Shown here one piece after another: positions 2,011 through 31,358 of a stretch of DNA of 35,951 bases (the first letter of the stretch is position 1; every line of letters starts with the position of its first letter). Source of the stretch: Anaerolineae bacterium (GTDB lineage Bacteria > Chloroflexota > Anaerolineae > SpSt-600); assembly GCA_034432815.1 (NCBI GenBank), contig DAOUBN010000053.1:1-35951 (forward strand). Reading direction: 5' to 3'. The translations under genes and the position numbers were made by a program. The notes under the pieces were generated by a model. That model did not search any database. It worked only from the letters and a program-made list of their open reading frames with translations, and had not been told where the DNA came from.

Positions 2011-2728
2011 AGTGGGATGCTGCGGCTTCCCCGCAGCCAGGGCCCGGTATTTTGAGACTTTCCGGCTGGTGGAGATCCAGAACACTTTCTACAAGCCTCC
2101 TCAGGTGGAAACGGCCAGGAAGTGGCGCCAGGAAGCCCCTCCCGACTTTGAATTCACCCTCAAAGCCTGGCAGCTCATAACCCACCCCCCAACAAGCCCC
2201 ACTTACCGCAAGGCCGGCATCAAGGTTGACAGGGAAAAGGCCTCTTCCTACGGGTTCTTCCGCCCAACGCCTGAGGTTTTCCAGGCCTGGGAAACGACCC
2301 TGGCCATAGCTGAGACTCTGGAGGCGAAAGTAGTGGTGTTCCAGTGCCCGGCGGCCTTCACCCCTTCTGAGGAGAACATCGCCAGCATGAGGACCTTTTT
2401 CCGGGAAATCCCCAGGAAGGGGCTCCTCTTCGCCTGGGAACCAAGGGGGGAGTGGGAGGATGCGGAGATAAGGAGGCTGTGCGAGGAGCTGGAGCTTATC
2501 CACTGTGTGGATCCTTTCCAGCGCATGCCAGTGACGGGTGGACTGGCCTATTTCCGGCTTCACGGCAAAACAGGCTACAACTATCGCTTTACAGAGGAAG
2601 ACCTGCTCTGGCTCAGGGAGCAGTGCGAGCCTTTCAGCGAGGTCTACTGCCTCTTCAACAACGTTTCCATGTGGGATTCGGCCCTGGCCTTCCTGGAGCT
2701 CCTCAGTGGTGGGTCTCGCGCCCCCTGA
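2000..2728 (+). CDS. DUF72 family protein
   Basis: [46 protein letters not shown] fits the DUF72 N-terminal pattern. GTG 2000 has GGAGG 5 nt upstream. The track's ATG 1928 would overlap parA by 83 nt. Confidence 0.7.
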
Positions 2729-3191
2729 GGAGGTCAAGGCCGTGAGGCAGGGCCGGGAGGATGGCTTCAAGGTTTTCCCGGGCGGCTTTAGGGCTTCCGG
2801 GCAGATTGACGATGAGAGTCTTCCCCCTTATTCCGGCTATGGCCCGGCTCAGCATGGCGTGAGGGGTTTTCTGAAGGCTTGAAGCCCTCATGGCTTCGGC
2901 CAGGCCCGGGGCTTCCTTCTCAATGACTGCCCTGGTGGCTTCCGGGGTCACATCCCTTGGGGCAAATCCGGTGCCTCCGGTGGTCAGGATGAGCTCCAGG
3001 TCCAGCTCATCGGCCCACCTCCGGAGCACTTCTGCGATCATCTCTTTTTCATCGGGGACGATCTCCTCCGCCACCACTTCCGCCCCGAGCTTCTCCTCCA
3101 CCAGCCTGCGGATTTCCGGCCCGCTCAGGTCCTGATATTCCCCCCTTGAAGCCCTGTCGCTCACGGTGAGGATCCCGACTTTTATGCCCAT
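2703..3191 (-). CDS. mogA: Molybdopterin adenylyltransferase MogA/MoaB family
   Basis: [16 protein letters not shown]...[20 protein letters not shown]...[15 protein letters not shown] are classic MogA/MoaB motifs. Its 3' end overlaps the convergent DUF72 gene by 26 nt. Confidence 0.85.
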
Positions 3192-3216
3192 AGCCTCCTC
3201 CAGTTGAAAGTATCAG

Positions 3217-3785
3217 GTGAGCACCCCTCCACCCCCGATTTTCCCCACCCTCATTTGCTGAGGGTTCGCCAGGGTTCATGGTCCCACCCGTGGGCGGGTT
3301 GCATGGGTGCACCCCTTTGGAGAAGAGAAAAGTGGCGGGGGGACACCCCCCGCAGCCCCCTGGCATGGGGGCTTCGCCCCCCTGCACCCCCCTTTCTGGG
3401 GGGACACCCCCATGCCCCCCGGGAGGGGGCTCTGCCCTCTCCCCCCCATGAATGGGAAAAACAGGAGGTGCAGGGGGACAAAGTCCCCCTGACGGGGGGA
3501 AGTGGGGGGTGTCCCCCCACGAAAACAAAATTGGGGGCGAGCTGCCACCTCCTGAAACCCGCCCACGAGGGGGCCCCTTAAGCCAGGCTGAACCGGAGCA
3601 AACGGGGGTGGGGGATTTATTTCTTCGGGGGCACATCCCCCAAACCCCCTGGCATGGGGGCTTCGCCCCCTGCACCCTCCCGATTTTTGGGGGACACCCC
3701 CCAGGCCCCCGGGAGAGGGCTTCACCCCCTCCACTCCCATTTTGGGGAGCACCCCCACGGCCCCACGGCGTGGGGGTTTCGCTCC
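3217..3785. repeat. Mosaic A/B interspersed-repeat cluster 1
   Basis: A1 module 3243-3315, two B modules (e.g. 3336-3392), a reverse B (~3468-3519), A2 module 3533-3615 and about three more B modules. The same modules recur at five other loci. Boundaries +/-15 bp. Confidence 0.85.
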
Positions 3786-3788
3786 AGG

Positions 3789-4721
3789 TCAGGGTTCCAG
3801 CCAGGCGAATTCAAACAGCCTGGGGGCTTTAAACTCCCTTACAAACCCTTTTATCCTCTCCTCCGCCAGCTTCACATACTCTTCTTCTATCTCATACCCA
3901 ATATAATGCCTCCGCGTTTTTATGGCGGCTATGGCGGTTTGCCCACTCCCCATGAACGGGTCCAGAACCACCTCGCCTTCGTAAGTGTAAAGCTGTATGA
4001 GCCTGTAAGGCAGCTCCACGGGGAAAGGAGCCGGATGCCCGATTTCCTTTGCCGATACAGCCGGGAAAGTCCAGACGCTCCGGGTGAACTCCAGGAACTC
4101 CTCCTTTGAGATGGTGCTTCTCCTCCCGGCGGGGTTTTTCCTGGAGAACGTGCCCTTGGAGAAAACCAGGATATATTCGTGAACATCCCTCAGGGTTGGA
4201 TTCGTGGCTGAGCACCAGCTCCCCCAGGCGGTGGAGGGGCTCGCAGAGGAACCTTTGTTCCAGATTATTTCCCCCCGCATCAAAAAGCCCAGCTCCAGCA
4301 TATCCCTTATGATGAAGGCGTGGAGGGGTATGTAAGGCTTCCGGCCCAGGTTAGCGATGTTTATGCAGGCTCTGCCTCCCGGCACAAGAACCCTGTAGAC
4401 CTCTTTCCACACCCGCTTCAGAAACGCCAGGTATTCCTCCAGGGTGAGGTCCCGATCGTATTCCTTGCCCACATTGTAAGGAGGCGAGGTCACCATGAGG
4501 TGGACGCTGTTATCGGGCAGTTCCTCCATTTTTTCGGAGGATTTGCAGAAGATTTTGTCCAGAAATTCAGGGGGAATCGGGTTTTCCACCCACTTCAACT
4601 TTTGCTCCTTAGGCAGGCCTTCATAGAGTTTGCTTGTATAGAAAGGGGTGGAGTCGTGGTTTATCCTGCCAGGTGAGCCAAAAGAGCTTGTCCTGGTCCC
4701 TCTCCTCCTCACCTTGCCCAT
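3789..4721 (-). CDS. Beta-class N4-cytosine/N6-adenine DNA methyltransferase (SPPY type)
   Basis: Motif IV (TSPPYNVGKEYD) lies upstream of motif I (DPFMGSGQTAIAA), which is the beta-class order. The SPPY variant is typical of m4C enzymes. G+C is visibly lower than in flanking genes. Confidence 0.85.
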   Translation of the reverse strand: MGKVRRRGTRTSSFGSPGRINHDSTPFYTSKLYEGLPKEQKLKWVENPIPPEFLDKIFCKSSEKMEELPDNSVHLMVTSPPYNVGKEYDRDLTLEEYLAFLKRVWKEVYRVLVPGGRACINIANLGRKPYIPLHAFIIRDMLELGFLMRGEIIWNKGSSASPSTAWGSWCSATNPTLRDVHEYILVFSKGTFSRKNPAGRRSTISKEEFLEFTRSVWTFPAVSAKEIGHPAPFPVELPYRLIQLYTYEGEVVLDPFMGSGQTAIAAIKTRRHYIGYEIEEEYVKLAEERIKGFVREFKAPRLFEFAWLEP

Positions 4722-4725
4722 TTAA

Positions 4726-5358
4726 TTACTCCTCCTTCCAGCAATCTACCCATCTCTTGTAAGGGTTGTAAGCCATCTTCGTTTTGCGCCATTCTATAGT
4801 GATGCACTTTGTGCGCTTATCCGCAATTAAAGCGGAGATGGCCTCCTTGGAAATCTCCACGCCGCGCGGGTTAGTTCCAGGCTTTGGCAGCTTTATGTAT
4901 ACCTCCTTTCCGAGCTTTTCAAACACTTCTTGCTGAACTTCAACGGGGATGTAATAAAAACCACCCCTGCCTCCCCAGTTAATGTGAACCAGCAAAAAAT
5001 CGCATTTAGGGCAGTATTCCTCTTTAAATTTGCGCGCTTTTTGAGGGTCAACTGTCCAGACAAGCTTAACCCCGCCGATGCTTTTACCGGTTACGGTCTT
5101 AATGGAGATTGGCTTACCAAATAATTTTACATCTACTTCTGGCTCTGTGGGCGGAATTTCAGTTTGCACATTATCCTCACCGAATTTATAAATGAGCAAG
5201 GCTACCAAAATTTTCTCCCGGAGGGAGCCAGCTTCCATTCCCACTTTGCCGGCTCTTGAGCTTTCCATCTCTGCAAGCTGGAACAGATACGGCAATTTGC
5301 GTTCAATTTTCTCCACAGTTTGCGCATCATCAAATATCTCTTCCAATCTGCTCGCCAT
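4726..5358 (-). CDS. Putative type II restriction endonuclease, partner of the methyltransferase
   Basis: 210-aa ORF 4 nt upstream of the MTase on the same strand, in AT-rich sequence. Possible PD-(D/E)XK element (PTEPEVDVKLFG). I do not recognise a family. Start set at MASRLEEIF; the track's extension to 5490 overlaps the upstream gene. Confidence 0.45.
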   Translation of the reverse strand: MASRLEEIFDDAQTVEKIERKLPYLFQLAEMESSRAGKVGMEAGSLREKILVALLIYKFGEDNVQTEIPPTEPEVDVKLFGKPISIKTVTGKSIGGVKLVWTVDPQKARKFKEEYCPKCDFLLVHINWGGRGGFYYIPVEVQQEVFEKLGKEVYIKLPKPGTNPRGVEISKEAISALIADKRTKCITIEWRKTKMAYNPYKRWVDCWKEE

Positions 5359-5419
5359 TTTCTTTCTGCTCTGGAACGATTTGTAGATGGGGCGACCCCT
5401 GAGGGCCGCCCCATTGCTT

Positions 5420-8400
5420 TTATGTTCTCCGCATGAAGCGGGGGAGGATGGTGGCCCATTCGGGCAGGGGGACGCTGTCCCCGGGGCCAAGTTTGTCCAC
5501 AGGCTTCACCTCCCGCTGGCGGGCACGGCCCGCAAATATCCCTATCTGACTGCCTTCCCGGGCGTGGCGCCTGTCCACAAGAGCCATGCCGGTGAGGAAG
5601 CCTTCCGTGTCAATGGCGCAGGAGGTCACCACCCCGATGTAGTCCCCCCGCTGGTTGACTACAGGATCACCGGGCTCAGGCCTGGGAACGCCCTTGCGGT
5701 TCATCCGGAAGCGGATTATCTCCCGGGTCCGCCTGGCTTCTTTCTCTATGATGGCCTTCCGCCCGATGAAGTAGGGCTTGTGGAATTTGACGTAAGGGGC
5801 GAAACCCGCCTCTATCGGGTCTATGTTGAAGGGGCCTGCCAGTTCGTGGCCGTAAAGCGGCAGACCCGCTTCCGTCCGGGTTGAATCCCTGGCCCCGAGG
5901 CCCGCCGGCTTTATGCCGAAAGGCTTCCCCTTCTCCAGGAGCAGGTTCCACAGGCGAGGGGCATCGTCGGGGTGGACGAAGATCTCGTAGCCCCACTCCT
6001 CGCCGGTGTAACCCGTGCGGGCCACGATCACGTCCATCCCGTCCAGGGTCATTTCGGCCAGCTCTGTGCGGCGCATCCTCTTCAGGATCTCCCTGCCATC
6101 ACGATCGGCCAGGGACATGAGAATGTGGATTGAGGCCGGCCCCTGAAGGGCCATGTCCACCCTCATGTCTTTGCCGGAAGAGGGATCCTTGAGGTTCCGG
6201 AGGATGGCCTGCCCGTCCACTTCCTTAGCCGGGTTCTCCCTGTCCACGATAACCCGGCGGGAGTTAACGGCGTTCAGCCAGGCCCAGTCCTTCTCCTCAT
6301 TGGCGGCATTGACCACCATTATGTAGCGATCGCGGCGGATCCGGTAAATCATAACGTCGTCTATGACGTTGCCGTCAGGGTCAAGCAGGTAGGAGTAGAG
6401 GGACTGGCCGTCCTCAAGCCAGCGGACGTAGTTGGTGGTGACGAAGTCAAGGAAGCGGGTGGCATGTTCCCCGGAGATTTCAAATACTCCCATGTGGGCC
6501 ACGTCAAACAGGCCCGCGGCTTCCCGCACTGCCCTGTGCTCCTCAAGCACGCCTGTATACCAGACAGGCATTTCCCATCCGGCGAAGGGGATGAGTTTGG
6601 CCCCAAGCTTGCGGTGTTCTTCGTAGAGGGGGGTGTGCTTGAGAGGGCCTGGCTTTTCCTCCCAGCGGAACTCTTCCTTCTGGACGGGAGGCCTCTCTGA
6701 GGCCAGGAATTTTTCCCCCACAAAGTAGGGCTTGGAGAGGGCGAAGAGGTCCCTGTGGTTGCTCCGGTAGAGGGTGAGGGCATCGGGCCTTTCCCCGTCG
6801 TAAGAGGGCCAGTCGGCTCCGGAGCGCCAGGATCTGTAGGCCTGAGGCGAGGATGGCTGGAAGCCGTTCTGGCGCAGGATCCCCCAGAGCCGGGCGATGT
6901 TGTCGGGATGGGATATAAGCATCAGGAGTTCGCATCCGTTGCCGTAGTCCACCCTGGCGGCCAGCGTCTCCACTCCGTCCACCTGACCGGCCCAGAACCG
7001 GTTCAGGGGCATCTCGGGGAGCCAGGGCAAAAGGCCTTTGAGCCGGGAAACGGCTTCTTTCCCCGCCACTCCTATGGCCACTTTCCTCCAGGGTTCCTCC
7101 ATATCCTCCCACAGATCCTCCACGATGACAGGCCCTTCAACTTTGGCCAGGATGTCCTGGCGGTCAAAGATCGTGTAGCCATCGGACAGGGCCCGGAACC
7201 AGTCCTTAACCCTTTCGGTGTTTTCGGGGTTGGTGACAACCAGGTATTGCTGGCGGCCCCGGCTGTCGTCGGGAAGGCGGAGGATGGAGACATCGTCCAG
7301 GAGTTTGCCGTCGGCGTCCAGGAGGAAGGAGCGGGCTGCCATCCCCGGCCTGAGGTCGGCCAGGTTGGCGGTGTTGACCTGCTGGATGAAGGCTTCGGCC
7401 CTTGAGCCTCTGACCACAAGGAGGCCGAGGCTGGTCAGGTCAAAGAGGAAGGGCCCCTCGCCGGCGGGGATGGCTTTCTCCTCAAAGAGGGGCTTGCGGA
7501 CGGGCTCCTTTCCGGGCAGGAAGCAGTAGTGGGGGTAGCCGGTCCGGCAGGGGGGCGGGCAGATAGGGATGCGGTCAATCAGTTCGTCCACGCGGCAAGC
7601 AGCTTTCTTGAGGATCTCCAACTCTATCTTGCCCCTGGGCAATTCGTGGTCGCGGCCGTAATAGCGGAAGGGCTTGATGTTGACCAGGACTTCGGTCATG
7701 ATATCGGCTATCTCATCCATCTCTTCGGCGTCAAGGCCCCTCTGGGTCACCCACGGGGTCCCGAGGCGTATCCCGCTGGCCAGGGGGGTCATGGTGTCGC
7801 CGGGAATTGTGTTCTTGTTGACGATGATGCCGGCTATGTCCAGGAGTCTGGCGGCAATTTCCCCCTTCACCGGGTAGCCGGTATCGGTCCTGATTGACCT
7901 GAGGTCCAGGACCACCATGTGGGTATTGGTCCCGCCGTAGGCTACTTTTATCCCCCTCTTCTGGAAGGCCTCGGCGAGGGCTTTTGCGTTCTCCACGATT
8001 TTATACTGGATGCGCTTGAAGGTTTCGGTCTGGGCGATCTTGAAGGCCACGGCTATGGCGGCGAACTTGTTGACGTGGGGGCCTCCCTGGATTCCCGGGA
8101 AGACGGCGGCGTCAATGCGCTGGGCGAGCTCCTCGTCTGTGGTGATGATGACGGCTCCCCTGGGGCCGCATATGGTCTTGTGGGTGGTGAAGGTTATGAC
8201 GTCAGCGATGCCGATGGGGGAGGGGTGGGCGCCGGCCACCACAAGGCCTGCGGTGTGGGCGATATCGGCCATGAGGTAGGCTCCCACGGCATCGGCTATC
8301 TCCCGGAACTTCTCCCAGTCGGGTGCCCAGGAGTAGGAGGTGTAGCCAGCTATTATGAGGCGCGGCCTGTATTCCAGGGCCAGCTTCATAATCTGGTTGT

Positions 8401-8992
8401 AATTGAGGCGCTCGGTGGCGGGGTCAACTCCGTAGGAGACGACTTTGTAGCGGCGGCCGGAGATGTTGAACTCGCTTCCGTGGGTGAGGTGGCCCCCCTG
8501 GAAGAGGTCCATCCCCATTATGGTATCGCCGGGGTTGAGGAGAGCATCATATACGGCGATGTTGGCGGCGGCGCCGGAGAGGGGCTGGACGTTGACGAAG
8601 ATCCGCTCCGGGGGCACCCTTTCGTTGGCGAAGGCCTGGGCAATCCTGCGCTGGGCGAGGGTTTCCACAAAGTGGACGTATTCAACCCCTTTGTAGAACC
8701 GCCTGTCGCCGTAGCGCCGGTAGTGGCTGAGCTGGTGGGCGAAGTCCATCACAAGCTCCATCTCTTCCCTGGTCATCCTCAGGGGAGGGTAGCCTTCGGC
8801 GTAGATGTTGTTGAAGACGGAGCCCAGGGCTTTGAGGACGGGTTCGGGGGCTATGCTCTCGGAGGGTATCAGGATGATCTTGCGGGCCTGTTTTTCCTCC
8901 TCAAAGCGGATGAGGCGGTCTATCTCCGGGTCAATGGCCGAGAGTTCCCCTTCAAGGATCGCACGGTATTCCTGAGCGAGCTTCAGGTCCAT
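5420..8992 (-). CDS. Fusion protein: serine hydroxymethyltransferase + GcvT-like domain + aminomethyltransferase (GcvT)
   Basis: aa 1-~475 are SHMT-like (SESIAPEPVLKALGSVF.NIYAEGYP, GGHLTHGS, PLP-lysine motif TTHKTICGPRG). aa ~505-780 are a degenerate GcvT/YgfZ-like fold (LLVVRGSRAEAFIQ..LLDADGKLLDDV). aa ~785-1190 are a full GcvT (TPLYEEHRKLGAKLIPFAGWEMPVWY..EEHRAVREAAGLFDVAHMG..ARTGYTGEEWGYEIF..ARDSTRTEAGLPLYGHEL). RBS AAGGAGGGGG precedes the ATG. Confidence 0.85.
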   Translation of the reverse strand: MDLKLAQEYRAILEGELSAIDPEIDRLIRFEEEKQARKIILIPSESIAPEPVLKALGSVFNNIYAEGYPPLRMTREEMELVMDFAHQLSHYRRYGDRRFYKGVEYVHFVETLAQRRIAQAFANERVPPERIFVNVQPLSGAAANIAVYDALLNPGDTIMGMDLFQGGHLTHGSEFNISGRRYKVVSYGVDPATERLNYNQIMKLALEYRPRLIIAGYTSYSWAPDWEKFREIADAVGAYLMADIAHTAGLVVAGAHPSPIGIADVITFTTHKTICGPRGAVIITTDEELAQRIDAAVFPGIQGGPHVNKFAAIAVAFKIAQTETFKRIQYKIVENAKALAEAFQKRGIKVAYGGTNTHMVVLDLRSIRTDTGYPVKGEIAARLLDIAGIIVNKNTIPGDTMTPLASGIRLGTPWVTQRGLDAEEMDEIADIMTEVLVNIKPFRYYGRDHELPRGKIELEILKKAACRVDELIDRIPICPPPCRTGYPHYCFLPGKEPVRKPLFEEKAIPAGEGPFLFDLTSLGLLVVRGSRAEAFIQQVNTANLADLRPGMAARSFLLDADGKLLDDVSILRLPDDSRGRQQYLVVTNPENTERVKDWFRALSDGYTIFDRQDILAKVEGPVIVEDLWEDMEEPWRKVAIGVAGKEAVSRLKGLLPWLPEMPLNRFWAGQVDGVETLAARVDYGNGCELLMLISHPDNIARLWGILRQNGFQPSSPQAYRSWRSGADWPSYDGERPDALTLYRSNHRDLFALSKPYFVGEKFLASERPPVQKEEFRWEEKPGPLKHTPLYEEHRKLGAKLIPFAGWEMPVWYTGVLEEHRAVREAAGLFDVAHMGVFEISGEHATRFLDFVTTNYVRWLEDGQSLYSYLLDPDGNVIDDVMIYRIRRDRYIMVVNAANEEKDWAWLNAVNSRRVIVDRENPAKEVDGQAILRNLKDPSSGKDMRVDMALQGPASIHILMSLADRDGREILKRMRRTELAEMTLDGMDVIVARTGYTGEEWGYEIFVHPDDAPRLWNLLLEKGKPFGIKPAGLGARDSTRTEAGLPLYGHELAGPFNIDPIEAGFAPYVKFHKPYFIGRKAIIEKEARRTREIIRFRMNRKGVPRPEPGDPVVNQRGDYIGVVTSCAIDTEGFLTGMALVDRRHAREGSQIGIFAGRARQREVKPVDKLGPGDSVPLPEWATILPRFMRRT

Positions 8993-9004
8993 ATCCCCCT
9001 CCTT

Positions 9005-12000
9005 TTAGCGATTCATTTTACCAATTGCAGGCACTTCGGCGCTCTTTGGCTTTTTGCTTTCCAGGACTTTCTCTATTTCCGGGACGTTCTCTCCGAGGAG
9101 GCGGCGCAGTTCAAAGATTTCGTCGCGCAACATGGCCGCTTTTTCAAATTCCAGGTTCTTTGCGGCGATGTGCATCTGGTTCTCCAGTTCCTTTATCATG
9201 CGCCTGATTTCGTCCTTAGGGATTTCCTCACCCCGCACGATGTATTCGGCTTTGCGCTCCGCCACTTTCCGGACTCTGTCTGTGAGGTCGCGCACCTCTT
9301 TGACGATGCTGCGGGGCTCAATGCCGTGGCGCAGGTTGTATTCCATCTGGATGCGGCGGCGGCGCTCGGTCTCTTCTATGGCCCGGCGCATGGATTCGGT
9401 GATGGTGTCGGCATACATTATGGCGGTGCCTTCCACGTGCCTTGCCGCCCGCCCAATGGTCTGGATGAGGGCGGTCTCGGACCGCAGGAAGCCTTCTTTA
9501 TCGGCGTCCAGGATGGCCACCAGGGAGACTTCGGGCAGGTCCAGGCCCTCCCGCAGGAGGTTTATCCCCACCACCACGTCGTAGACGCCAAGGCGCAAGT
9601 TGCGCAGTATCTCCACCCGCTCAATGGTGTCAATTTCCGAGTGGAGGTAATGCACCTTGATGCCCATCTCGGCGAGATACTCGGCCAGGTCCTCGGCCAT
9701 CCTCTTGGTGAGGGTAGTGACCAGGGCCCGCTGCCCCTTTTCCACCCGCTTGCGGATTTCGGAGATGAGGTCATCAATCTGGCCCTTAGTGGGGCGCACC
9801 TCCACCTTCGGGTCCACGATTCCGGTGGGCCTTATAAGTTGCTCCACGACCTGTTCGCTCTTTTCCAGTTCGTAAGGGCCTGGGGTGGCGGAGGTGAAGA
9901 TGACCTGGCGCACCCGCTGCTCAAATTCCTCAAACTTGAGGGGCCTGTTGTCCAGGGCCGATGGCAGGCGGAAGCCGTAGTCCACCAGGGTTTTCTTGCG
10001 GGTGTAATCTCCGTGATACATCCCCCTGAGCTGGGGTATGGTCATGTGGGATTCGTCTATTATGACCAGGAAATCGTCGGGGAAGTAATCCAGGAGGGTC
10101 CAGGGGGGTTCTCCAGGCTTGCGGCGGGAGAGGTGGCGGGAGTAGTTTTCAATGCCGGGGCAGTAGCCTGTGGTCTTCAGGAGCTCCAGGTCGTAGCGGG
10201 TGCGCTGCTCAAGGCGCTGGGCCTCCAGGAGCTTCCCCTGAGCTCTGAGTTCCGCCAGCCTCTCCTCCAGTTCCTGCTCTATGTCCCTTATGGCCAGCTG
10301 GAGCTTTTCGTAAGGGGTGATGAAGTGCTTTGCCGGGTAAATGGCTACGGAGTCCAGCTCCCTGAGGATCTCGCCGGTGAGGGGGTCAAATTCGGTTATG
10401 CGCTCTATTTCATCGCCCCAGAATTCAATGCGGTAGGCAGTCTGGAGGTAGGCGGGCTGGACTTCCACGGTGTCTCCCCGGACCCGGAACCTCCCCCTTT
10501 CCAGGACGGTGTCGTTTCTCTCATACTGGATTTCCACCAGGTGGCGGAGGATTTTGTTGCGGCGGCGGACTTCGCCACGCCTGAGGGTTAGCACCACCTG
10601 GCCGTAGTCCTCGGGGCTTCCGAGGCCGTAGATGCAGGATACCGATGCCACGATGATGACGTCCCGGCGGGAGAAGAGGGCGGATGTAGCGGCCAGGCGC
10701 AGGCGGTCAATCTCCTCATTGATGTCGGCGTCCTTCTCTATGTAGAGGTCGTATTCGGGCAGGTAGGCTTCGGGCTGGTAGTAGTCGTAGTAGCTCACGA
10801 AGTATTCAACGGCATTGTGAGGGAAGAATTCCCGGAATTCGGCGTAGAGCTGAGCGGCCAGGGTCTTGTTGTGGGCGATGACGAGGGTTGGCTTCTGGAC
10901 CTGTTCAATGACTTTGGCCATGACGAAGGTGTTGTGCACAAAGAGCCCTCCCGCACCGGCTAAGAAGGTTTCATTCCCGGCCACGCTCAGGTCGTAAACG
11001 TAAGGCGAGGAAGCGCTTGCCGGCTCAACGCTGGCCACCGGCGACCAGCGGACCTTCAGGCGGCTCTGGAGTTTTCTCCAGCCTTCCCACCACTTTTCAT
11101 CTTCGTGATGCCTGGCCCCGGCTATTTCGCTTAAGGCTTCAAGAAGGCGCTGGAAGCTGGCGCGGGATGGGTTCCGGACCTGGCATTCAATCGCCGAGAC
11201 CAGCTTCTGGCTGACGCCTGCTGCTTGAGCCAGGAGTTTTTGGCTGACGCCCAGAGCCAGCCGCAGGTCCCGAAGGGAGCTCCCGACATCCGGGATTATG
11301 TCTACGCTGGAATTGGCCTTTCTGGCGATTTCCTGTTCCAGAGCCTCTGCTTTTCCGGCAAGGGAGAACCCGATGTGCTGATGGAAGGCGCGCAGGTTTT
11401 CCTGGCCAGATATGCTCACCTTCCAGTACCAGTCGCCCGGGTGATTGCCGTTGGTTGCCCGCTTGCGCACGCGCTGAATGCGAGCCCAGATGCCGAAGCG
11501 CAACAGCGCATAGGCCAGTTCGTAAGCCAGGCGCTGGCTGGCCGTGGTCACGGTCACGCATCCTTTATCACGCTCAACCGTCCCATCGCCATCAAAGTAG
11601 GCTTGCAGGAGTATGGCCAGCTGACGGTTGGACAGTTGAGGCCAGAAAGGAGGCAGGTGCTTCTCGCGAGCCACCCGGCCTGCCAGGCGGGCAAACAGCC
11701 GGGCAAGGGGAGCCGATGAGATCTGGAAATCGCTTGAGGGTCGGATTGTGAAGCGGAGCCCCAGTTCTGTCAGGCTTTCCGCGATGTGTTCCCTCAGTTG
11801 AGGGGAGCGGTTGGCCAGGATGAGGTGATTCCCTTTGGCCGTCGCCGTCCCTTCGGCCAGGTAACAGCCAAGCAGCCTCAGGAAAGCATCAGTAAGGCGC
11901 AATTCCAGGGGCAACCCTGAGCGCTCTAACCTGCCGGCCACATGAGCCTGCTCCGGGTGCCAGGTTCCCTGAAAGCTCTCCGTTGCCTCTGGACAGGAGT

Positions 12001-12670
12001 AATGAGGGGCGAGGAGGGCGGTGAATTCCTGCCCGCCCCTCGCCGCGATGTATTCGGCAATTTGTTGACGGGCTTGGATGAACAGGCCTGCGTCCTGCAG
12101 GTAATCCAGCAGGTTCAGGTCTGGAAGGTCCTGCGCAGGGGCAGGAATGCTGAGGGGGATGGGTATGTAATCCCCGGGGCGAATTTCGGTGGTAGGAAGC
12201 AAGTGCATCTGTCCGTCCCGGAGCACCCAGAGGTTGTGGTCTCCGGTGATGACCGCGCTTCTGCCGCATTTCAGGGTCACCCGGAACATCCGCTCGGGGG
12301 CGCGATGCCGGATGAAAGCCATAATGGGTTTCGGTTCCACCTCGCCTGTGCGGGCGTTGAAGCTCAAAGTCCAGTATGAGCCGGGTTCAGGGCGCGCCAC
12401 CACCGTGTCGCCGTAGTGTTCCACTCTGGAGGCTCTTTTTATCGCAGCTTCAATAAGTTCCCCGATAGGGACAAGCTCAAAGCGGAAGCCATCGCTCTCC
12501 TTCCGGGCGATGAAGACGGGCTCGGCGCCGTCCAGGCTCTTGCCGGTGCCCGTGGCTCCCAGCAGGGTCTGGTAGCGGTATCCTTTGCGGATACCTTCTA
12601 CCAGTTTTTCTATGGCCTGGGGCTGGTCGCCTGTGGGTTTGAAGGGGGAGACGAGTTTAAACCTTTCCAT
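9005..12670 (-). CDS. uvrB: Excinuclease ABC subunit B (UvrB), interrupted by an intein
   Basis: [38 protein letters not shown]|...|[25 protein letters not shown], helicase motifs and a C-terminal UVR motif ([17 protein letters not shown]). Start set at ATG 12670. The track's 56-codon extension to 12838 is translated repeat DNA. Confidence 0.9.
10931..12538 (-). mobile_element. Intein (536 aa, Ser1...His-Asn / Thr+1) with LAGLIDADG homing-endonuclease and HTH regions, inserted in the UvrB Walker A motif
   Basis: It begins SLDGAEPVF directly after GATGTGK and ends GGLFVHN directly before TFVMAKV. Block B is [18 protein letters not shown] motifs are [11 protein letters not shown] and [15 protein letters not shown]-like HTH is [25 protein letters not shown]. 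Block F is [12 protein letters not shown]. Length is 1608 nt, in frame. Confidence 0.85.
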
Positions 12671-13235
12671 TTTTGTTTCCCCACCCTCGTGGGCTCGGGG
12701 TTCGCCATGGTTCAGGATCCCACTCGTGGGCAAGTTGCGGGAGTTGCCTTCTCGCTCCTTTGATTGGTTTTTCTGGGGGCACATCCCCCATACCCCCTGG
12801 CATGGGGCTTTGCACCCTGCACCCCCGATTTTCCCCACCCTCGTTTGCTCTGGGTTTGCCCACGTTCAGAGTCCCACTCGTGGGCGGGTTGCGGGAGTTG
12901 CCCCCTCGCCCCTTGATTTGTTTTCCTGGGGGGACACCCCCCAGACCCCCCGGGAGGGGGCTCGCCCCCTCCAACCCCTTGAGGTTGTTTTCCCGGGGGC
13001 ACATCCCCCATACCCCCAGCATGGGGGCTTCGCCCCCCCTGCACCCCTCTTTCCCCACCCTCGTTTGCTCAGGGTTCGCTGGGCTTCAGGGGCCCCCTCG
13101 TAGCCAGGTTGCAGGAGTTTCCCGCTCGCCCCTTGATTTGTTTTCCTGGGAGGACACCCCCCAGACCCCCGGGAGGGGGCTCGCCCCCTCCACCCCCATT
13201 TTGGGGACACCCCCCAGGCCCCCCGCCAGGGGGTT
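12671..13235. repeat. Mosaic A/B interspersed-repeat cluster 2 (three same-orientation A1+B units)
   Basis: A1 copies at 12679-12758, 12833-12912 and 13053-13132, each followed by 1-2 B modules (e.g. 12928-12978). Confidence 0.85.
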
Positions 13236-13256
13236 CTATGTTTCCTCCTCGTTTAA

Positions 13257-16253
13257 TTATACCTCCACGCGGGAGAGGTCAGCAATGCCTCTGGGGAGGA
13301 GGGCTATGCGCTGGAGGAGGGCGAGTCTGTTCTCCCTTATCTCCCTGTCCTCCACCATGACAAAGACTTCGTAAAAGAACCTGTCTATCGGCTCTACAAG
13401 GGGCATGAGCAGGGCGAAGAGGCCGTCAATGTCGTTGACCTTTCGCCTCTTCTCCTCCGCCTCCAGATATGCCCTGTAGAGGTCGTGTTCGGCGGGTTCG
13501 GTGAAGAGTTCCGGGCGGAGGGGCAGGAGCTCAGGCACATCTTTCACTATCCTGGCCGGCCGGATGAAGGCAGTCATGACGGCGGGGAACTCGGGTTTCT
13601 GCGCCCAGCGGGCCAGGTCCTGCAGGGTGACCCAGGCTAAATAAGGGTTATCGGCCCGCTCGGCCAGGACGGCTTCTATGAGGTCGGGCCGGTAGCCTCT
13701 CTCCTGGAAGAGGCCCCGCATCCTCGCCACGATGAATTCCAGGGCCTCCTGCAGGATTTCCCCGGTGATGGCCAGCGGGAGAAGGCGAGCCGCTTCGGCC
13801 AGGGCCTCCCGGAGGGACAGGCTTATGCCTTTGTCCACCAGGATCTGGACAAGGCCCAGGGCCGTCCGGCGGAGCCCGTAAGGGTCGGCTGAGCCGGTGG
13901 GAGCAAGCCCCGCTCCGAGAAGACCCACCAGGCTGTCCAGTCTGTCGGCAATCCCCACCACTGTGCCGGGGATGGTGCGGGGAAGGGAATCGCCGGCGAA
14001 GCGAGGCAGGTAGTGCTCAAAGATGGCTTCGGCCACCTCGGGATCTTCCCCCCAGTGGAGGGCGTAGTGGCGGCCCATGGTCCCCTGCAGGCTCGTTAGT
14101 TCTACAACCATCTGGGTGGCAAGGTCGGCCTTGCACAGGCGGGCGACTCTGGAGGCCTTTTGGCTTTCCTCTTCGGAGAGGCCAAGGCGCCGGCAGAGCC
14201 ACGGCACGAGTCTTTCCAGCCTGCTCACTTTGTCCAGCATTGACCCGAGCCTTTCCTGGAAGGTGAGCCCCCCGAGCTTCGGCAGGTATTCCTCAAGGGG
14301 CTTTTTGAGGTCTGTTGCGATGAAGTAATCGGCATCGGAGAAGCGGGCCCGCAGGACTTCTTCGTTCCCCCTGCGGACTATGTCCAGGTGGCGGGTGTCC
14401 CCGTTGCGGACGGCGATGAAGTAGGGGAGGAGTTTGCCTTCCTGGGAGAGGACAGGGAAGTAGCGCTGGTGTTTCTTCATCACGGTTATCAGGACTTCCT
14501 GGGGGAGGCGGAGGAAGGCGGGGTCAAAGGACCCCCGGAGGGCCGTCGGCTTTTCCACGAGATTGGTTACCTCTTCCAGCAGAGCCGGGTCATCCGGGAT
14601 CAGACCTCCCACTTCCGAGGCCAGTTCGGCTGCCTGCCTCCTTATTTCCTCCCGGCGTTTCTCCAGGTCCACCACGATCCCGGCCTCTTCCATGGCTCTG
14701 AAGTAGTCTTCAGCCCTGGGGATTTCAATGGCAGGGGAGCCTTCGGGCCTGAGGCCCCTGGTGGTGCGGCCGGAACGGACCCCGGCGTATTCAAAGCTCA
14801 CCACTCTGGCCCCGAAGAGGGCCACGATCCAGCGGATCGGCCTTGAGAACCTCACGCCGCTTTCGTTCCAGCGCATTGTGAGGGGGAAGCGCAAGGATGA
14901 GATGAGCCTGGGGAAGAGTTCGGCCAGGACGGAGGGGGTTGCTTCCCCTTTTTTCCGGACCACGGCCACCACATAGCGCTTGTCCTCGTATTCCCTTATC
15001 TGGAGATCTTCCACTCTCACGCCCTGCTTTTCGGCGAAGGCAATGGCGGCTCTGGTGGGTTTTCCCTCCGGGTCAAAGGCTGCCGAAGCCGGAGGCCCTT
15101 TGACCACCATTTCCTCTTCTTCCTGGCAGGAAGCGAGGTTTCTGATGTAGAGGACAAGGCGGCGGGGGGTTCCGGCCACGTAGAGGCTTTCGTAGCGGAG
15201 GCGAGCCTGGGCGAGGAGATCCGGGGCAAGTTCCCGGATCTGCTCCACTGCCAAGCTCAGGTCGCGGGCTGGCAGCTCTTCGGTGCCGATTTCCAGGAGG
15301 GCATCGGCGTAGGGGGGCAGGTCTTCTGTTCCCTCCGGCTCAGGGATCGCTTCTGCCTTCTGCCGGGTTGGGGCTCCTTTCAGCCAGGGGAAGCCCGCTT
15401 CCTGGCGCTGGTTCAGGTAGAGCTGGGCGGCCTGGCGGGCCAGATCCCGCATCCGGGCGAAGTAGGAGGCCCTCTCAGCCACCCCTATCGTCCCCCGGGA
15501 GTCCAGGAGGTTGAAGGTATGGGAGCAGCGTAGGATGTAATCGTGGGCCGGGACTACCAGGCCCCTTTCCAGGCAGCGTTTAGCTTCGGCCTCGTATTCG
15601 TTGTAGAGGCGCCGGAGCCTTTCCACATCCGCTTCTTCAAAGTTGTAGATGCAGTGCTCCACTTCCGAGCGGAGGAGGATATCGCCGTAGGAGTGGATCC
15701 CGTCCCAGTCAATTTCCCATACGCTCCTGACTTGCTGGAGGAACATGACAATGCGTTCAAGGCCGTAGGTTATCTCCACGGCCACGGGGTTCAGGTCAAT
15801 TCCTCCCGCCTGCTGGAAGTAGGTGAACTGGGTTATTTCCAGGCCGTCAAGCCAGACTTCCCACCCGAGTCCCCAGGCTCCGAGGGCCGGGGATTCCCAG
15901 TTGTCCTCCACGAAGCGGATATCGTGCTGGCGGGGGTCTATGCCCAGAACCTGAAGGCTCTCCAGGTAAATTTCCTGAGGGTTGCCGGGGTCGGGCTTGA
16001 GGATGACCTGGAACTGGAAGTGGAGTTGCATCCGGTTGGGGTTCTCCCCGTAGCGTCCATCGTCGGGGCGGTAGGATGGCTCCACGTAGGCCACGTTCCA
16101 GGGTTCGGGCCCGAGGACCCGCAGGAAAGTAGCCGGGTTCATGGTCCCGGCCCCAACTTTTTCGCTGTAAGGCTGCCATATCAGGCATCCCCTGTCGGCC
16201 CAGAACCTCTGCAGGCGGAGGATAACTTCCTGAAATGAAAGCGCTTTGCCCAT
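13257..16253 (-). CDS. glyQS: Glycine--tRNA ligase, fused alpha (GlyQ) and beta (GlyS) chains
   Basis: The N-terminus ([78 protein letters not shown]) closely matches GlyQ. The remaining ~700 aa are GlyS-like. Single 998-aa ORF. Confidence 0.9.
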
Positions 16254-16262
16254 AAATGCCTC

Positions 16263-17030
16263 CTACAGGAAATTTTCCACCTCAAGTTTTTCAAGGAATC
16301 TGGCGGATTTCAGGGGCCTTTCCATGTGGTAAACGATGTAGCGCCTGATGAGGGCTTCAACTTCCACGCTGAGGTTCCGGGGGACACGCAGGAGCTGGCA
16401 GAGTTCGTATTCCCGGGTGAGGAAGAAGCGCATGACCCTGAGGGCGCTGGCAGAAAAGGGGGTAGCGCCATCCTTCCCCTCGCCACAGCGGGGGCAGAGG
16501 GCACCACCATCGGCTGGGGAAAAGTAATTGACGTCAGCTTTGAGGGGCTCCCGGCACTTCACGCAGACGAAAAGTTCCGGCCTGTATCCGGCCAGGGAAA
16601 GGAGGCGAAGCTCAAAGAAGCGCAGGGCCGGCCATATTCCCTGTCCCCCTTCCAAGCGGTGGAAAGTGTCCAGAAGGAGGTGGAAGACCGCAGGGTTCCT
16701 GTCCTGCTCAGCCATGAAGCCATCGGTTAGTTCGGCTATGTAATGGGCGTAGCCGGTGCGGATCAGGTCTTCCTTCAGGGCCTGGAAGTATTCCAGGGCC
16801 TCGGCCTGGGTTATCAGGTCAATCTCTTTCCCTTTAGCCACCAGGAGCTTGACGTGGGTGAAGAGCTCCAGGTGGCCGGCCTTGCGGCTCGTGGGCTTCC
16901 GGACGCCCTTAGCCAGCAGGCGGAGCTTGCCCTCCTCAAGGGAATACACTGTTAAGAGCCTGTCGGCCTCCCCAAAGTCCGTCCGCTTGAGGACTATAGC
17001 GGTGATCTTGTAAAGCCTTTCCCTGTTCAC
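16263..17030 (-). CDS. recO: DNA repair protein RecO
   Basis: The size, the N-terminal OB region (AIVLKRTDFGEADRLLTVYS...GKLRLLAKGVRK) and the zinc motif (CVKC...CPRCG) fit RecO. The GTG start overlaps the upstream stop (GTGA). Confidence 0.8.
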   Translation of the reverse strand: MNRERLYKITAIVLKRTDFGEADRLLTVYSLEEGKLRLLAKGVRKPTSRKAGHLELFTHVKLLVAKGKEIDLITQAEALEYFQALKEDLIRTGYAHYIAELTDGFMAEQDRNPAVFHLLLDTFHRLEGGQGIWPALRFFELRLLSLAGYRPELFVCVKCREPLKADVNYFSPADGGALCPRCGEGKDGATPFSASALRVMRFFLTREYELCQLLRVPRNLSVEVEALIRRYIVYHMERPLKSARFLEKLEVENFL

Positions 17031-29270: not shown

Positions 29271-29918
29271 TCAGTTTATCCCCAGCAGTGCTTTGGCCTT
29301 CTCCACAGCGAGGGAAGCGTTGGGGGCGTATCCGTCGGCCCCTATCTCATCGGCGTATTCCTGGGTCACGGGGGCCCCTCCCACCATGATCTTCACCCTA
29401 TCCCGGAGGCCGGCCTCCCTTAGGGCCTCTATAACCCTCTTCATCTCCACCATGGTGGTGGTGAGGAGGGCCGACATCCCCACGATCTGGGGGTTATGCT
29501 CCCTCACCGCCTCCACGAACCTCTCCGGCGGGGTGTCAACCCCCAGGTCCACCACCCTGAACCCTGCCCCCTCCAGCATCATGGCCACCATGTTCTTCCC
29601 GATATCGTGCAGGTCGCCCCTGACGGTGCCGATGACGAAGGTTCCGAGGCCCGAGGCGCCCGTTTCCGCCAGAAGGGGCCGCAGGATCTCCATGCCTGCT
29701 TTCATAGCGTAAGCGGCCACCAGCACCTCGGGCACGAAGAGGATGCCATCGCGGAAATCCTTCCCAACTTTTTCCATCCCGGCGATCAGGCCTTTCTGGA
29801 GGATTTCCTCGGGCGGGATGCCCTCATCCAGGGCTCTGCGGGTGAGCTCGGTCACCTTCTCAACCTCGCCATTGTAAAGGGCCTCGGCCATTTCCCTCAG
29901 AATGCCTTCCATGTTCAT
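29271..29918 (-). CDS. Corrinoid (B12-binding) protein, MtaC/MetH cobalamin-domain family
   Basis: An N-terminal helical cap, then GTVRGDLHDIGKNMV (the DxHxxG motif), MSALLTTT and VGGAP. Confidence 0.85.
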   Translation of the reverse strand: MNMEGILREMAEALYNGEVEKVTELTRRALDEGIPPEEILQKGLIAGMEKVGKDFRDGILFVPEVLVAAYAMKAGMEILRPLLAETGASGLGTFVIGTVRGDLHDIGKNMVAMMLEGAGFRVVDLGVDTPPERFVEAVREHNPQIVGMSALLTTTMVEMKRVIEALREAGLRDRVKIMVGGAPVTQEYADEIGADGYAPNASLAVEKAKALLGIN

Positions 29919-31357
29919 TCCTCCTTCAGGGTTTTGGCCTCTTCCCAGAGGGCGTCCATCTCCCCCAGGTCCATTTCCTCAAGCCTCTTCCCCCTCTTCC
30001 TGGCCTCTTTCTCAATGTGCCTGAAGCGGGCGGAGAACCGGGCATTGGCCAGGCGCAGGGCGCTTTCGGCATCAACCCCGAGCCAGCGGGCGAGGTTGAC
30101 CATGGTGAAGAGCACATCCCCGACCTCTTTTTCCCGCTCCTCCGGGGTGCGAGCAGCCCTGAGCTCGGCGAGCTCCTCCTCCAGCTTGCGCCAGACCCCC
30201 TCCGCATCCTCCCAATCAAACCCCACCTGGGCGGCTTTCCGCTGGTAAGCCTGGGCCTGAGCCAGGGCACATAAAGCACCGGGAACCCCCTCCAGCAGGG
30301 AGCTCTCCTCTTCCTTCTCCTCCCGCTTTATCCTCTCCCACCTCTGCAGCACCTCCTCCGCATCCTTAACCTTCACCTGGCCGAAAACGTGGGGGTGACG
30401 GCGCTTGAGCTTGCGGATCAGGCCGGCCACGATTTCAGCGGGGCGGAATTCCCCCTCCTCAAGGGCGATCTGGGCATGGAGCATTACCTGAAGCAAAAGG
30501 TCGCCGAGCTCCTCCCGAAGCCTCAGAGGGTCTTCCCCGTCCAAGGCCTCCAGAACCTCGTATGTTTCCTCAAGAAGGTAAGGCCTGATGCTCCTGTGAG
30601 TCTGCTGGCGATCCCAGGGGCACCCTTCGGGGGAGCGGAGATGAGCAACCACTTCCTGGAGGGTGATGAAGGAGCTTTCCTCTGGGAGGGGCGGGATGTA
30701 GAGGGAGGTCAGGTGGTCAATGTCCTCCTGGCGGTCCAGTTCGTAGAGGGGCAGGGTTCTGATAACGGGCTCCTCTGTCCCCGCCCCCCTGACCAGGGTT
30801 ACCGGATGCTCCTCAGGGTAGAGGTCCAGGAGGACGGCTTTAACCTGCGAGGCCAGGAAACGATCGTAAAGCTGGCCCACGATGGCCGGCCGGTCGGGGT
30901 CAATTCTGGGGTAGTGATGGGAGGCGAGGTCCGAAGCGTCCACGATCTGAAGCCCGTCAAGGGGGTCAAGCCTGAGGGCAGTGAAGAGGGAGTCCAGGAA
31001 GCTCACCCCGTCCCTGATCCTCACCTCCAGGCCCTTTTCGGAGGCCATCTTCAGGATCAGGCGCGTGGTGGTTTCACCCACGAGGGGGTGTCCCGGCACG
31101 GCATAGACCACCCCTTCCGGCCTTTCCCCAAGCCTCACGATCTCCTCAGCTATGGCCCTGTAAACCTCGTCAAAGGTCTCCTTCTCCTCGTAGAGGTAAT
31201 CAAAGGAGTGGACCCTGACGCCTTCGGGGAGGGAGGCCGCTGCAGGGTGCCTGATGGTTCTGAGGTAAACCTCCCCGGCGCTCCGGATTATCTCCCACAC
31301 CTCCCTGGTGATGAGGCTGGGGTCGCCTGGCCCAAGCCCAACGATCGTGATAGCCAT
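29915..31357 (-). CDS. YabN-like fusion: tetrapyrrole-methylase-fold domain + MazG pyrophosphohydrolase
   Basis: MAITIVGLGPGDPSLIT (TP-methylase N-terminus) and LRSPEGCPWDRQQTHRSIRPYLLEETYEVLEALD with a second MazG repeat (FDWEDAEGVWRKLEEELAEL..EVGDVLF). Start at ATG 31357 with AGGAGG upstream; the track extends to 31474. Confidence 0.8.
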   Translation of the reverse strand: MAITIVGLGPGDPSLITREVWEIIRSAGEVYLRTIRHPAAASLPEGVRVHSFDYLYEEKETFDEVYRAIAEEIVRLGERPEGVVYAVPGHPLVGETTTRLILKMASEKGLEVRIRDGVSFLDSLFTALRLDPLDGLQIVDASDLASHHYPRIDPDRPAIVGQLYDRFLASQVKAVLLDLYPEEHPVTLVRGAGTEEPVIRTLPLYELDRQEDIDHLTSLYIPPLPEESSFITLQEVVAHLRSPEGCPWDRQQTHRSIRPYLLEETYEVLEALDGEDPLRLREELGDLLLQVMLHAQIALEEGEFRPAEIVAGLIRKLKRRHPHVFGQVKVKDAEEVLQRWERIKREEKEEESSLLEGVPGALCALAQAQAYQRKAAQVGFDWEDAEGVWRKLEEELAELRAARTPEEREKEVGDVLFTMVNLARWLGVDAESALRLANARFSARFRHIEKEARKRGKRLEEMDLGEMDALWEEAKTLKEE

Positions 31358-31358
31358 C

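Follow-up and report, generated by a model that had tools for sequence, protein, structure and literature searches.

Serine hydroxymethyltransferase (SHMT) and the glycine cleavage system are two one-carbon entry points into folate metabolism, and they are functionally coupled (2 Gly <-> Ser + CO2 + NH3). SHMT, a pyridoxal phosphate (PLP)-dependent enzyme, interconverts Ser + tetrahydrofolate (THF) and Gly + 5,10-methylene-THF (CH2-THF), and the T-protein (GcvT) of the cleavage system interconverts aminomethyl-lipoyl-H-protein + THF and CH2-THF + NH3 + dihydrolipoyl-H-protein. A contig of 35,951 nucleotides from an Anaerolineae bacterium (assembly GCA_034432815.1, contig DAOUBN010000053.1; its whole length is referred to here as the window) contains one gene in which both activities appear to be encoded in a single chain, with a further folate-enzyme-like segment between them. 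This raises the question of whether such a gene is real, what its product does, and what the extra segment is for. We find that an SHMT, a decaying extra copy of the GCV_T domain and a complete T-protein are joined in one gene, which belongs to a widespread family and is a variant of known enzymes, not a new kind of system; its product is likely to be bifunctional.

One gene, three modules

The gene and its ribosome-binding region are:

5420..8992, minus strand: whole fusion open reading frame (ORF), 1190 aa plus stop codon, ATG start, no internal stops
8995..9004, minus strand: Shine-Dalgarno region AAGGAGGGGG, in the gap from the uvrB stop codon to the ATG of the fusion (upstream sequence ...CGCTAAAAGGAGGGGGAT-ATG)

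The Shine-Dalgarno sequence is strong, with GGAGG 6-10 nt 5' of the ATG in a gap of 12 nt between the uvrB stop codon and the start of the fusion. In a Pfam scan of the whole protein, SHMT was matched with E=2e-124 (415.6 bits versus a cut-off of 27) and GCV_T with E=2e-99 over two stretches. When the three protein segments were scanned one by one, the first matched SHMT (E=1.1e-125), the middle one GCV_T (E=2.9e-20, 73 bits versus a cut-off of 25.6, profile positions 42-240 of 255) and the C-terminal one GCV_T again (E=3.2e-79), with GCV_T_C in the last segment falling under its cut-off (19.6 versus 25.9 bits). The curated cut-offs of NCBIfam were passed both for SHMT (NF000586, 447.4 versus 335 bits) and for GcvT (TIGR00528, 313.9 versus 235.85 bits; NF001567, 362.4 versus 300 bits). 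We looked for a Met codon or start signal ahead of the C-terminal GcvT part and found none, and GC content is even along the gene. An AlphaFold2 (AF2) model of the full 1190-aa chain has a mean pLDDT of 83.9 and a pTM of 0.80, and for a chain of this length such a pTM hints at a defined arrangement of the domains.

An original prediction, made from the letters of the DNA before any database was searched, had described one uninterrupted ORF with three parts. This description is borne out, its domain order and approximate borders were right, and the motifs lie where it had put them, TTHKTICGPRG holding Lys272 and PLRMTREEMELVMDFAHQLSHYRRYGD standing between YAEGYP and RRFYKG.

Distribution of the fusion

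One might suspect an artefact: glyA and gcvT could be separate genes that a chimeric assembly or a frameshift error has merged. One relative (locus L049), in which the gene is read as two overlapping ORFs, could be taken to favour it. However, a search of a 5.8-billion-protein collection with the window protein as query returned, among the matches listed, at least 120 full-length relatives of 1090-1250 aa and 53-92% identity, each with PF00464 and PF01571, and a second search with a divergent, Anaerolinea-type seed gave at least 120 more of about 1040 aa, sharing 71% identity or more with the seed and labelled Bellilinea, Longilinea or Anaerolinea. More than 240 clusters (at 90% identity), drawn from independent NCBI, JGI, ENA and Logan assemblies, thus contain the fused ORF, some of the family's members lie on long-read contigs of 4.9-5.4 Mb, and a scan of genome contigs found it in 79 species-representative genomes. 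Because of this recurrence in independent assemblies and in so many species, a chimera can be ruled out; family-invariant residues within the junction regions and the even GC content across the gene also speak against it, and we give an artefact next to no credence.

Most of the 79 genomes belong to Anaerolineae, Anaerolineales, Caldilineae, Thermoflexales or Aggregatilineales; two are Bipolaricaulota/Acetothermia, and eight are metagenome-assembled genomes (MAGs) binned as Spirochaetota, Thermotogae, Myxococcales or Neomarinimicrobiota. The closest relatives of the window protein (90-92% identity) are Anaerolineae MAGs. Among the carriers with a complete or nearly complete genome are CP070725.1 (Bipolaricaulota), OY771913.1 (Anaerolineaceae), ERZ25039495 (contig_13575 and contig_33090) and JABUFD010000001.1. 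With the family-specific inter-domain segment as query, 79 clusters (at 50% identity) were matched at E<=1e-30 and 168 at E<=1e-10, among 1.84 billion representatives. Some representative matches looked like other architectures (a match at 700-1040 of about 1100 aa, or proteins of 600-870 aa), but Pfam assigns them to this SHMT+GcvT family, either as ordinary members or as fragments truncated at the N-terminus.

The fusion is therefore widespread in Chloroflexota and present in databases under half-correct automatic names: "GcvT" in the NCBI pipeline, and "T protein" or "glycine hydroxymethyltransferase" in IMG. Our literature search found no description of an SHMT-GcvT fusion, the one paper in which Anaerolineae, glyA and gcvT occur together being silent on it, and a Foldseek search found no PDB entry that spans more than one of its modules (highest query-normalised TM-score, TMq, 0.32). 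The earlier claim that the architecture had not been characterised is in agreement with this, as neither search yielded a study or a solved structure. Its novelty had been made to turn on whether the architecture would prove common and already characterised; common it is (more than 240 clusters, 79 genomes), but no study that had characterised it was found. What the searches reveal is a large family, mostly from Chloroflexota, half-labelled as GcvT or glyA.

The SHMT module

The N-terminal part of the protein consists of:

7673..8992, minus strand: SHMT catalytic module, residues 1-440; Pfam SHMT, NF000586 above cut-off, PLP-Lys272 at nt 8177-8179, Foldseek TM 0.88
8705..8785, minus strand: family-specific 27-aa SHMT insert, residues 70-96 (PLRMTREEMELVMDFAHQLSHYRRYGD), between YAEGYP and RRFYKG, unaligned to all solved SHMTs
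7481..7672, minus strand: SHMT C-terminal extension (residues 441 to about 480, strands and a helix) and low-confidence linker (residues about 481-504), from AF2 secondary structure and pLDDT

We judged the invariance of SHMT residues in a family alignment of 50 sequences. The residues of the Bacillus stearothermophilus enzyme (bsSHMT) that correspond to catalytic or binding positions are all found in the fusion, and all are invariant in that alignment: Y51/E53/Y61 (Y64/E66/Y100 of the fusion), the PLP-stacking His122 (H168), D197/H200 (D243/H246), PLP-Lys226 (K272, within the motif T-T-H-K-T), the folate residue Asn341 (N394) and the carboxylate-binding Arg357 (R409). Here we take the roles of R357 (carboxylate), of E53, Y51 and Y61 (catalysis) and of N341 (folate) to be those known from bsSHMT mutant studies. 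The AF2 model of the module superimposes on solved bacterial SHMTs with a TM-score of 0.88 at 40-44% identity (Foldseek). Judged by its residues, then, the SHMT module is complete, with PLP, substrate and folate positions all intact, and "divergent", as it had been called, is too strong a word for a protein that is 40-44% identical to solved bacterial enzymes and has every catalytic residue.

Compared with stand-alone SHMT (GlyA, EC 2.1.2.1; B. stearothermophilus 1KKJ, E. coli 1DFO), with which it shares the fold, the PLP-Lys motif and the catalytic, carboxylate-binding and folate-binding residues, the fusion nevertheless differs in four respects. It has the 27-aa insert after YAEGYP, which had rightly been singled out as unusual and which is missing from every solved SHMT; it has a C-terminal extension of about 40 aa; it has Leu (L138) for His in the QPHSG motif; and it carries about 700 aa of covalently attached GCV_T modules. 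The insert is modelled with low confidence in the monomer (pLDDT about 38-45), and five of its residues (M73, R92, R93, Y94 and D96) are invariant in the alignment, as are P441, Y444, G446, R453, G454, K455, Y486, P487 and H488 of the extension and linker. A Cys-rich segment, IPICPPPCRTGYPHYC (residues 475-490), was considered as a metal or redox site and rejected, since its cysteines are unconserved and only Y486, P487 and H488 are kept. Positions 170-488 of the NCBIfam profile NF010094, a "long SHMT" of 496 aa, align to residues 157-479 of the fusion, although the protein scores under that model's cut-off. On profile coordinates alone, the insert and extension seem common to both, which suggests that the SHMT module came from a long-SHMT lineage already bearing them.

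One may ask whether the insert points to another substrate, such as threonine, alpha-methylserine or another hydroxy-amino acid, and hence to a new activity. The insert is conserved and lies beside the active-site Tyr/Glu loop, L138 replaces the His of QPHSG, the C-terminal extension is conserved as well, and neighbouring genes in related loci include aminotransferases, DUF1015 and a conserved protein of unknown function. Yet the module scores well above the SHMT cut-off (447 versus 335 bits for NF000586) and far below that for fluorothreonine transaldolase (96 versus 650), Arg409 and all catalytic residues are canonical, and the operon partners described below are ordinary glycine-cleavage proteins. 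We consider another substrate highly improbable, and the idea of a new activity on a serine/glycine-like substrate, as first proposed, loses its footing where substrate and cofactor residues are canonical and relatives lie in gcvH-gcvP operons.

The C-terminal T-protein and its operon partners

At the other end of the chain lies:

5423..6643, minus strand: complete GcvT/T-protein, residues 784-1190; GCV_T 789-1064 and barrel about 1090-1183, catalytic Asp879 at nt 6356-6358

These residues align end to end with the T-proteins of B. subtilis (1yx2, E=3e-68) and T. maritima (E=4e-65), and the AF2 model of the module matches the whole of 1yx2 with a target-normalised TM-score (TMt) of 0.92 and a root-mean-square deviation (rmsd) of 2.4 A. 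Despite the sub-threshold GCV_T_C score, the strands of the C-terminal barrel are present in the model and 1yx2 is fully covered. In human GcvT the THF site is formed by Met56, Asp101, Tyr197, Glu204 and Arg233 (PMC9551070). Their counterparts in the fusion are M834, D879, Y995, E1003 and R1035, and these are kept in all 60 of the relatives compared (the Tyr being Phe in one and Tyr in 59). The N-terminal segment of T-proteins, reported in a molecular-dynamics paper as essential for action on the H-protein, is present and conserved as well. By sequence and by model the C-terminal module is thus a complete canonical GcvT, as had been predicted for a "canonical aminomethyltransferase": it passes TIGR00528 and NF001567, retains the five THF-site residues and covers the solved structure.

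The likeness to stand-alone GcvT (EC 2.1.2.10; B. subtilis 1YX2, T. maritima 1WOO) extends from the end-to-end alignment to the Met/Asp/Tyr/Glu/Arg site, the three-domain layout including the barrel, and the genes gcvH-gcvPA-gcvPB that follow the fusion in relatives. The differences are that the N-terminus of the fusion's GcvT is tethered to the upstream modules rather than free, that an insertion of about 20 aa is present (about residues 918-940) relative to canonical T-proteins, and that the barrel falls below the Pfam cut-off.

Related loci were examined with flanks of 10 kb on either side, by ORF clustering and Pfam. In 15 of them the order is fusion-gcvH-gcvPA-gcvPB, and no separate gcvT or glyA was found within 10 kb on either side of any related locus. 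In three of these 15 (L014, L033, L047), gcvH-gcvPAB is separated from the fusion by DUF1015 and a SerA-like 2-hydroxyacid dehydrogenase. Serine-pathway genes are common near the fusion. Among the 54 loci with at least 3 kb of downstream sequence, 28 contain gcvH/P, a 2-hydroxyacid dehydrogenase, a class I/II aminotransferase or DUF1015, singly or in combination. In the Anaerolineaceae subfamily an aminotransferase lies directly 3' of the fusion. Two near-complete genomes of this group have a class I/II aminotransferase, then a gene of the PRK/uridine-kinase family and then, about 3.4 kb 3' of the fusion, a lipoate-protein ligase of the LplA/LipB family (L080 16604-17371, L081 16440-17270). 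One contig (L053) has two divergent fusion paralogs (2382-5705 and 11864-15151), placed in different clades of the tree discussed below; they flank two SerA-like 2-hydroxyacid dehydrogenases, DUF1015 and a class-V aminotransferase, an arrangement that resembles a serine/glycine island.

The position of a catalytic domain ahead of GCV_T recalls dimethylglycine oxidase (DMGO) and dehydrogenase (DMGDH), sarcosine oxidase alpha and trimethylamine N-oxide (TMAO) demethylase, in all of which a one-carbon-generating domain and a GCV_T folate domain follow each other in one chain and the reactive one-carbon unit is kept off the free pool; for TMAO demethylase, channelling to the GCV_T domain has been described (PMC13619132). 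By analogy, the SHMT module could act on a beta-hydroxy amino acid by folate-independent cleavage, and the formaldehyde so released could be trapped on THF by the GCV_T part, with no need of H-protein. All characterised fusions with a catalytic domain N-terminal to GCV_T act in this way, and gcvH and gcvP are missing near the window gene. In those enzymes, however, the upstream domain releases an iminium or formaldehyde for the GCV_T domain to trap, with H-protein playing no part, whereas the upstream domain of the fusion is itself a folate enzyme: E66, Y64, Y100 and N394 are family-invariant, and since these folate-binding residues are kept the SHMT module should make CH2-THF directly. The GCV_T part is moreover a GcvT at equivalog level (TIGR00528), far under the cut-offs for Tdm, SoxA and DmdA, and associated with gcvH/gcvP, with operons at 15 loci; it retains the full N-terminal segment implicated in H-protein interaction. 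Formaldehyde capture therefore appears very unlikely to us. A further difference from those enzymes is that the fusion has two tandem GCV_T copies, one of them decaying.

The middle module, a decaying duplicate

Between the two enzymes lie:

7115..7450, minus strand: middle module first half, residues about 515-626; GCV_T subdomain, profile positions about 50-155 matched in 60/60 members
6773..7114, minus strand: middle module second half, residues about 627-740; present in the window clade, lost or a low-complexity linker in about 48/60
6683..6772, minus strand: vestigial "LSKPYFVGEK" and linker, residues 741-770; a copy of the "FHKPYFIGRK" found ahead of the barrel in the C-terminal GcvT, the barrel being absent here

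Modelled alone, the middle module of the window folds confidently (pLDDT 88, pTM 0.87). Its best Foldseek matches are true T-proteins (1yx2/1wos, TMq 0.71-0.72, rmsd 3.0-3.6 A, 21-23% identity), with a TMt of only 0.56; sarcosine oxidase/DMGDH (TMq 0.69-0.70), YgfZ (0.64) and Iba57 (0.57) are lower. It corresponds to T-protein domains 1 and 2 only, the first 40 or so residues and the barrel being absent. The expectation of a degenerate GCV_T fold was therefore accurate (73 bits, a T-protein fold, THF residues unconserved), whereas "YgfZ-like" was not, the module being nearer to true T-proteins. It resembles YgfZ and Iba57 in keeping the fold and often the "catalytic" Asp after losing the canonical THF contacts, but those are stand-alone proteins with a barrel, whereas the middle module has no barrel, is never a separate protein in this data set, and is shrinking across lineages.

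We compared the 60 full-length relatives by means of a hidden Markov model (HMM) built from the family's own C-terminal domains. The inter-domain segment varies from 204 to 388 aa. Two relatives (L016 and L042) have a near-intact middle copy (E=1e-67 to 1e-72), and the window clade has an intermediate one (E about 1e-29), the match in the window protein starting at position 42 and ending at 307 of 406. In about 48 of the 60 the copy is down to positions about 50-155 and the vestigial motif, the lost half being replaced by low-complexity sequence such as PISNIQYPISNLQPP. The window gene is thus an ordinary member of the family's long-form minority. In short forms such as P0037, P0041 and P0043, repeats of the PISNIQ or PISNLQ type stand in place of the lost half. 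At locus L049 the two overlapping ORFs (9911-11734 and 11655-13406) split the fusion within the middle module, which may be a frameshift error or a natural fission, and this is the sole case among 80 loci.

Middle copies are 40-67% identical to one another and 25-42% identical to any C-terminal copy. That they are closer to one another than to the C-terminal copies indicates one ancient duplication, and for the same reason recent gene conversion was rejected as the source of the intact copies of L016 and L042. In a rough neighbour-joining tree made from conserved SHMT and GcvT columns, the long forms do not cluster together, each having short forms as its sisters, so the second half appears to have been lost several times, independently. 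The first subdomain, of about 100 aa, is always kept, and W598, D604, G605 and D613 are invariant in the family; near-invariant columns number 103 in SHMT, 62 in the GCV_T domain and four in the middle module.

Could the middle module of the window's long form nevertheless be a working third folate site, either a partial T-type site or a place where THF or CH2-THF is held between SHMT and GcvT? It is modelled with confidence as T-protein domains 1 and 2, the canonical THF positions hold L520 (for Met), D566, Y683 and, depending on the alignment, E688 or M, the middle copies of L016 and L042 retain all five residues, and the first subdomain has its family-invariant positions. Yet those two are the only middle copies in which all five survive. 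In the window Y719 stands in place of Arg233 and the Glu position can be aligned in more than one way, and about 50 of the 60 relatives have lost three of the five positions by deletion, with the Asp position being D in only 18/60. The independent deletions show that the second half is dispensable. Finally, the module has neither the N-terminal segment of about 40 residues nor the barrel, which in T-protein closes the THF cavity and bears a polyglutamate patch and Arg292 (PMC9551070). We regard a third folate site as unlikely. For a module that has no N-terminal segment or barrel and has shrunk in most lineages, a role as spacer or docking element is more probable than catalysis, and the middle module is best read, from its sequence and its predicted fold, as a vestigial T-protein duplicate kept in that capacity.

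Proposed function

Both end modules are complete, their active sites are family-invariant, and in relatives the fusion occupies the gcvT slot of glycine-cleavage operons. We consider it likely, on sequence and structural models, that the protein is a bifunctional SHMT/T-protein, with the vestigial middle copy as a structural spacer. An N-terminal SHMT would be covalently tied to a C-terminal T-protein to give a bifunctional serine/glycine one-carbon enzyme, and the middle module would be what is left of an ancient tandem duplication of the T-protein folate-binding domains 1 and 2; the N-terminal segment and barrel, used for the THF cavity and for H-protein engagement, would either never have been part of it or have since been lost. 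Since bacterial SHMT forms obligate dimers in which active sites are shared, the fusion would be a dimer bearing two T modules.

As the THF/CH2-THF pair is the only one common to both sites, the advantage may lie in a fixed 1:1 stoichiometry and in the closeness of two sites that use it. Folate could then cycle locally, with 2 Gly and Ser + CO2 + NH3 interconverted and little labile CH2-THF released; alternatively, the fusion may simply ensure 1:1 expression when both sites run towards CH2-THF. True channelling, beyond such co-localisation, is possible but doubtful. It would in any case not be channelling of glycine, as had been proposed, because glycine is the substrate of P-protein and that of T-protein is aminomethyl-lipoyl-H-protein; what the two sites share is THF and 5,10-methylene-THF. 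A bolder version, which we think rather unlikely, is a self-contained serine-glycine machine, in which the T and SHMT sites of an SHMT-centred dimer swap THF and CH2-THF unreleased, and the remnant of about 100 aa, together with the SHMT insert and extension, serves as docking surface, conduit, or second site for the H-protein or the folate tail.

Several observations weigh against a bifunctional enzyme with an inert spacer. Since W598, D604, G605 and D613 are invariant, "spacer" may fall short as a description of the middle module. The window has neither gcvH nor gcvP in its 36 kb, the neighbours of the fusion being uvrB and a restriction-modification system, and dependence on H-protein in the window organism is therefore extrapolated from relatives. 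Even among these, gcvH/P is found in only 14 of the 54 loci with at least 3 kb downstream, and a scan of the sequence 5' of the fusion at Rfam gathering thresholds gave no glycine riboswitch, either for the window or for eight operon-type loci.

Other features of the window and related loci

The gene context in the window is a housekeeping one, with an intein-containing uvrB, fused glyQS and recO 5' of the fusion, and the remaining features of note are:

9005-12838, minus strand: intein-containing UvrB, with LAGLIDADG_3 and HTH_3 in the intein; listed ORF 1277 aa, start probably at the Met of MERFKL, residue 57
13257-16253, minus strand: fused glycyl-tRNA synthetase alpha and beta, one 998-aa ORF with tRNA-synt_2e and tRNA_synt_2f
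16263-17030: recO, after the fused glyQS
3789-5490, minus strand: ThaI-family restriction endonuclease and N4/N6 DNA methyltransferase, directly 3' of the fusion; GC 0.52 versus about 0.61
29915-31474, minus strand: 519-aa protein with tetrapyrrole-methylase-like and MazG nucleotide pyrophosphohydrolase domains, also found near the fusion in five related loci

The ThaI-type cassette was probably acquired horizontally. As listed, the endonuclease ORF overlaps the 3' end of the fusion, and it does so via an upstream TTG only, the Pfam match beginning at residue 52. The UvrB of a 90%-identical relative (L003, 7930-9987) is 686 aa long and has no intein.

In related loci, DUF1015 co-occurs with the fusion seven times, which hints at a role in serine/glycine metabolism. 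In 16 loci (L022 6867-8021; L006, L010, L024, L049, L050, L058 and others) a conserved protein of about 385 aa without a Pfam match is encoded 5' of the fusion and in its orientation, often followed by an ORF with Phd/YefM and AF2212-like domains.

Implications

Because each database name covers only half of the enzyme, glyA or gcvT can wrongly be scored as missing when the metabolism of Anaerolineae, Bipolaricaulota and their relatives is reconstructed. The middle module provides an unusually complete series from intact duplicate through pseudo-enzyme domain to low-complexity linker, with several independent truncations.

For one-carbon metabolism, a natural covalent fusion offers a clean test of cofactor hand-over versus free diffusion. 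If THF and CH2-THF were indeed exchanged without release, this would be the first physical device coupling the glycine cleavage system to SHMT, and would give an experimental handle on the old question of methylene-THF channelling between glycine decarboxylase and SHMT. The reductive glycine pathway relies on exactly these two activities, and a fused scaffold derived from a thermophile could help in engineering it.

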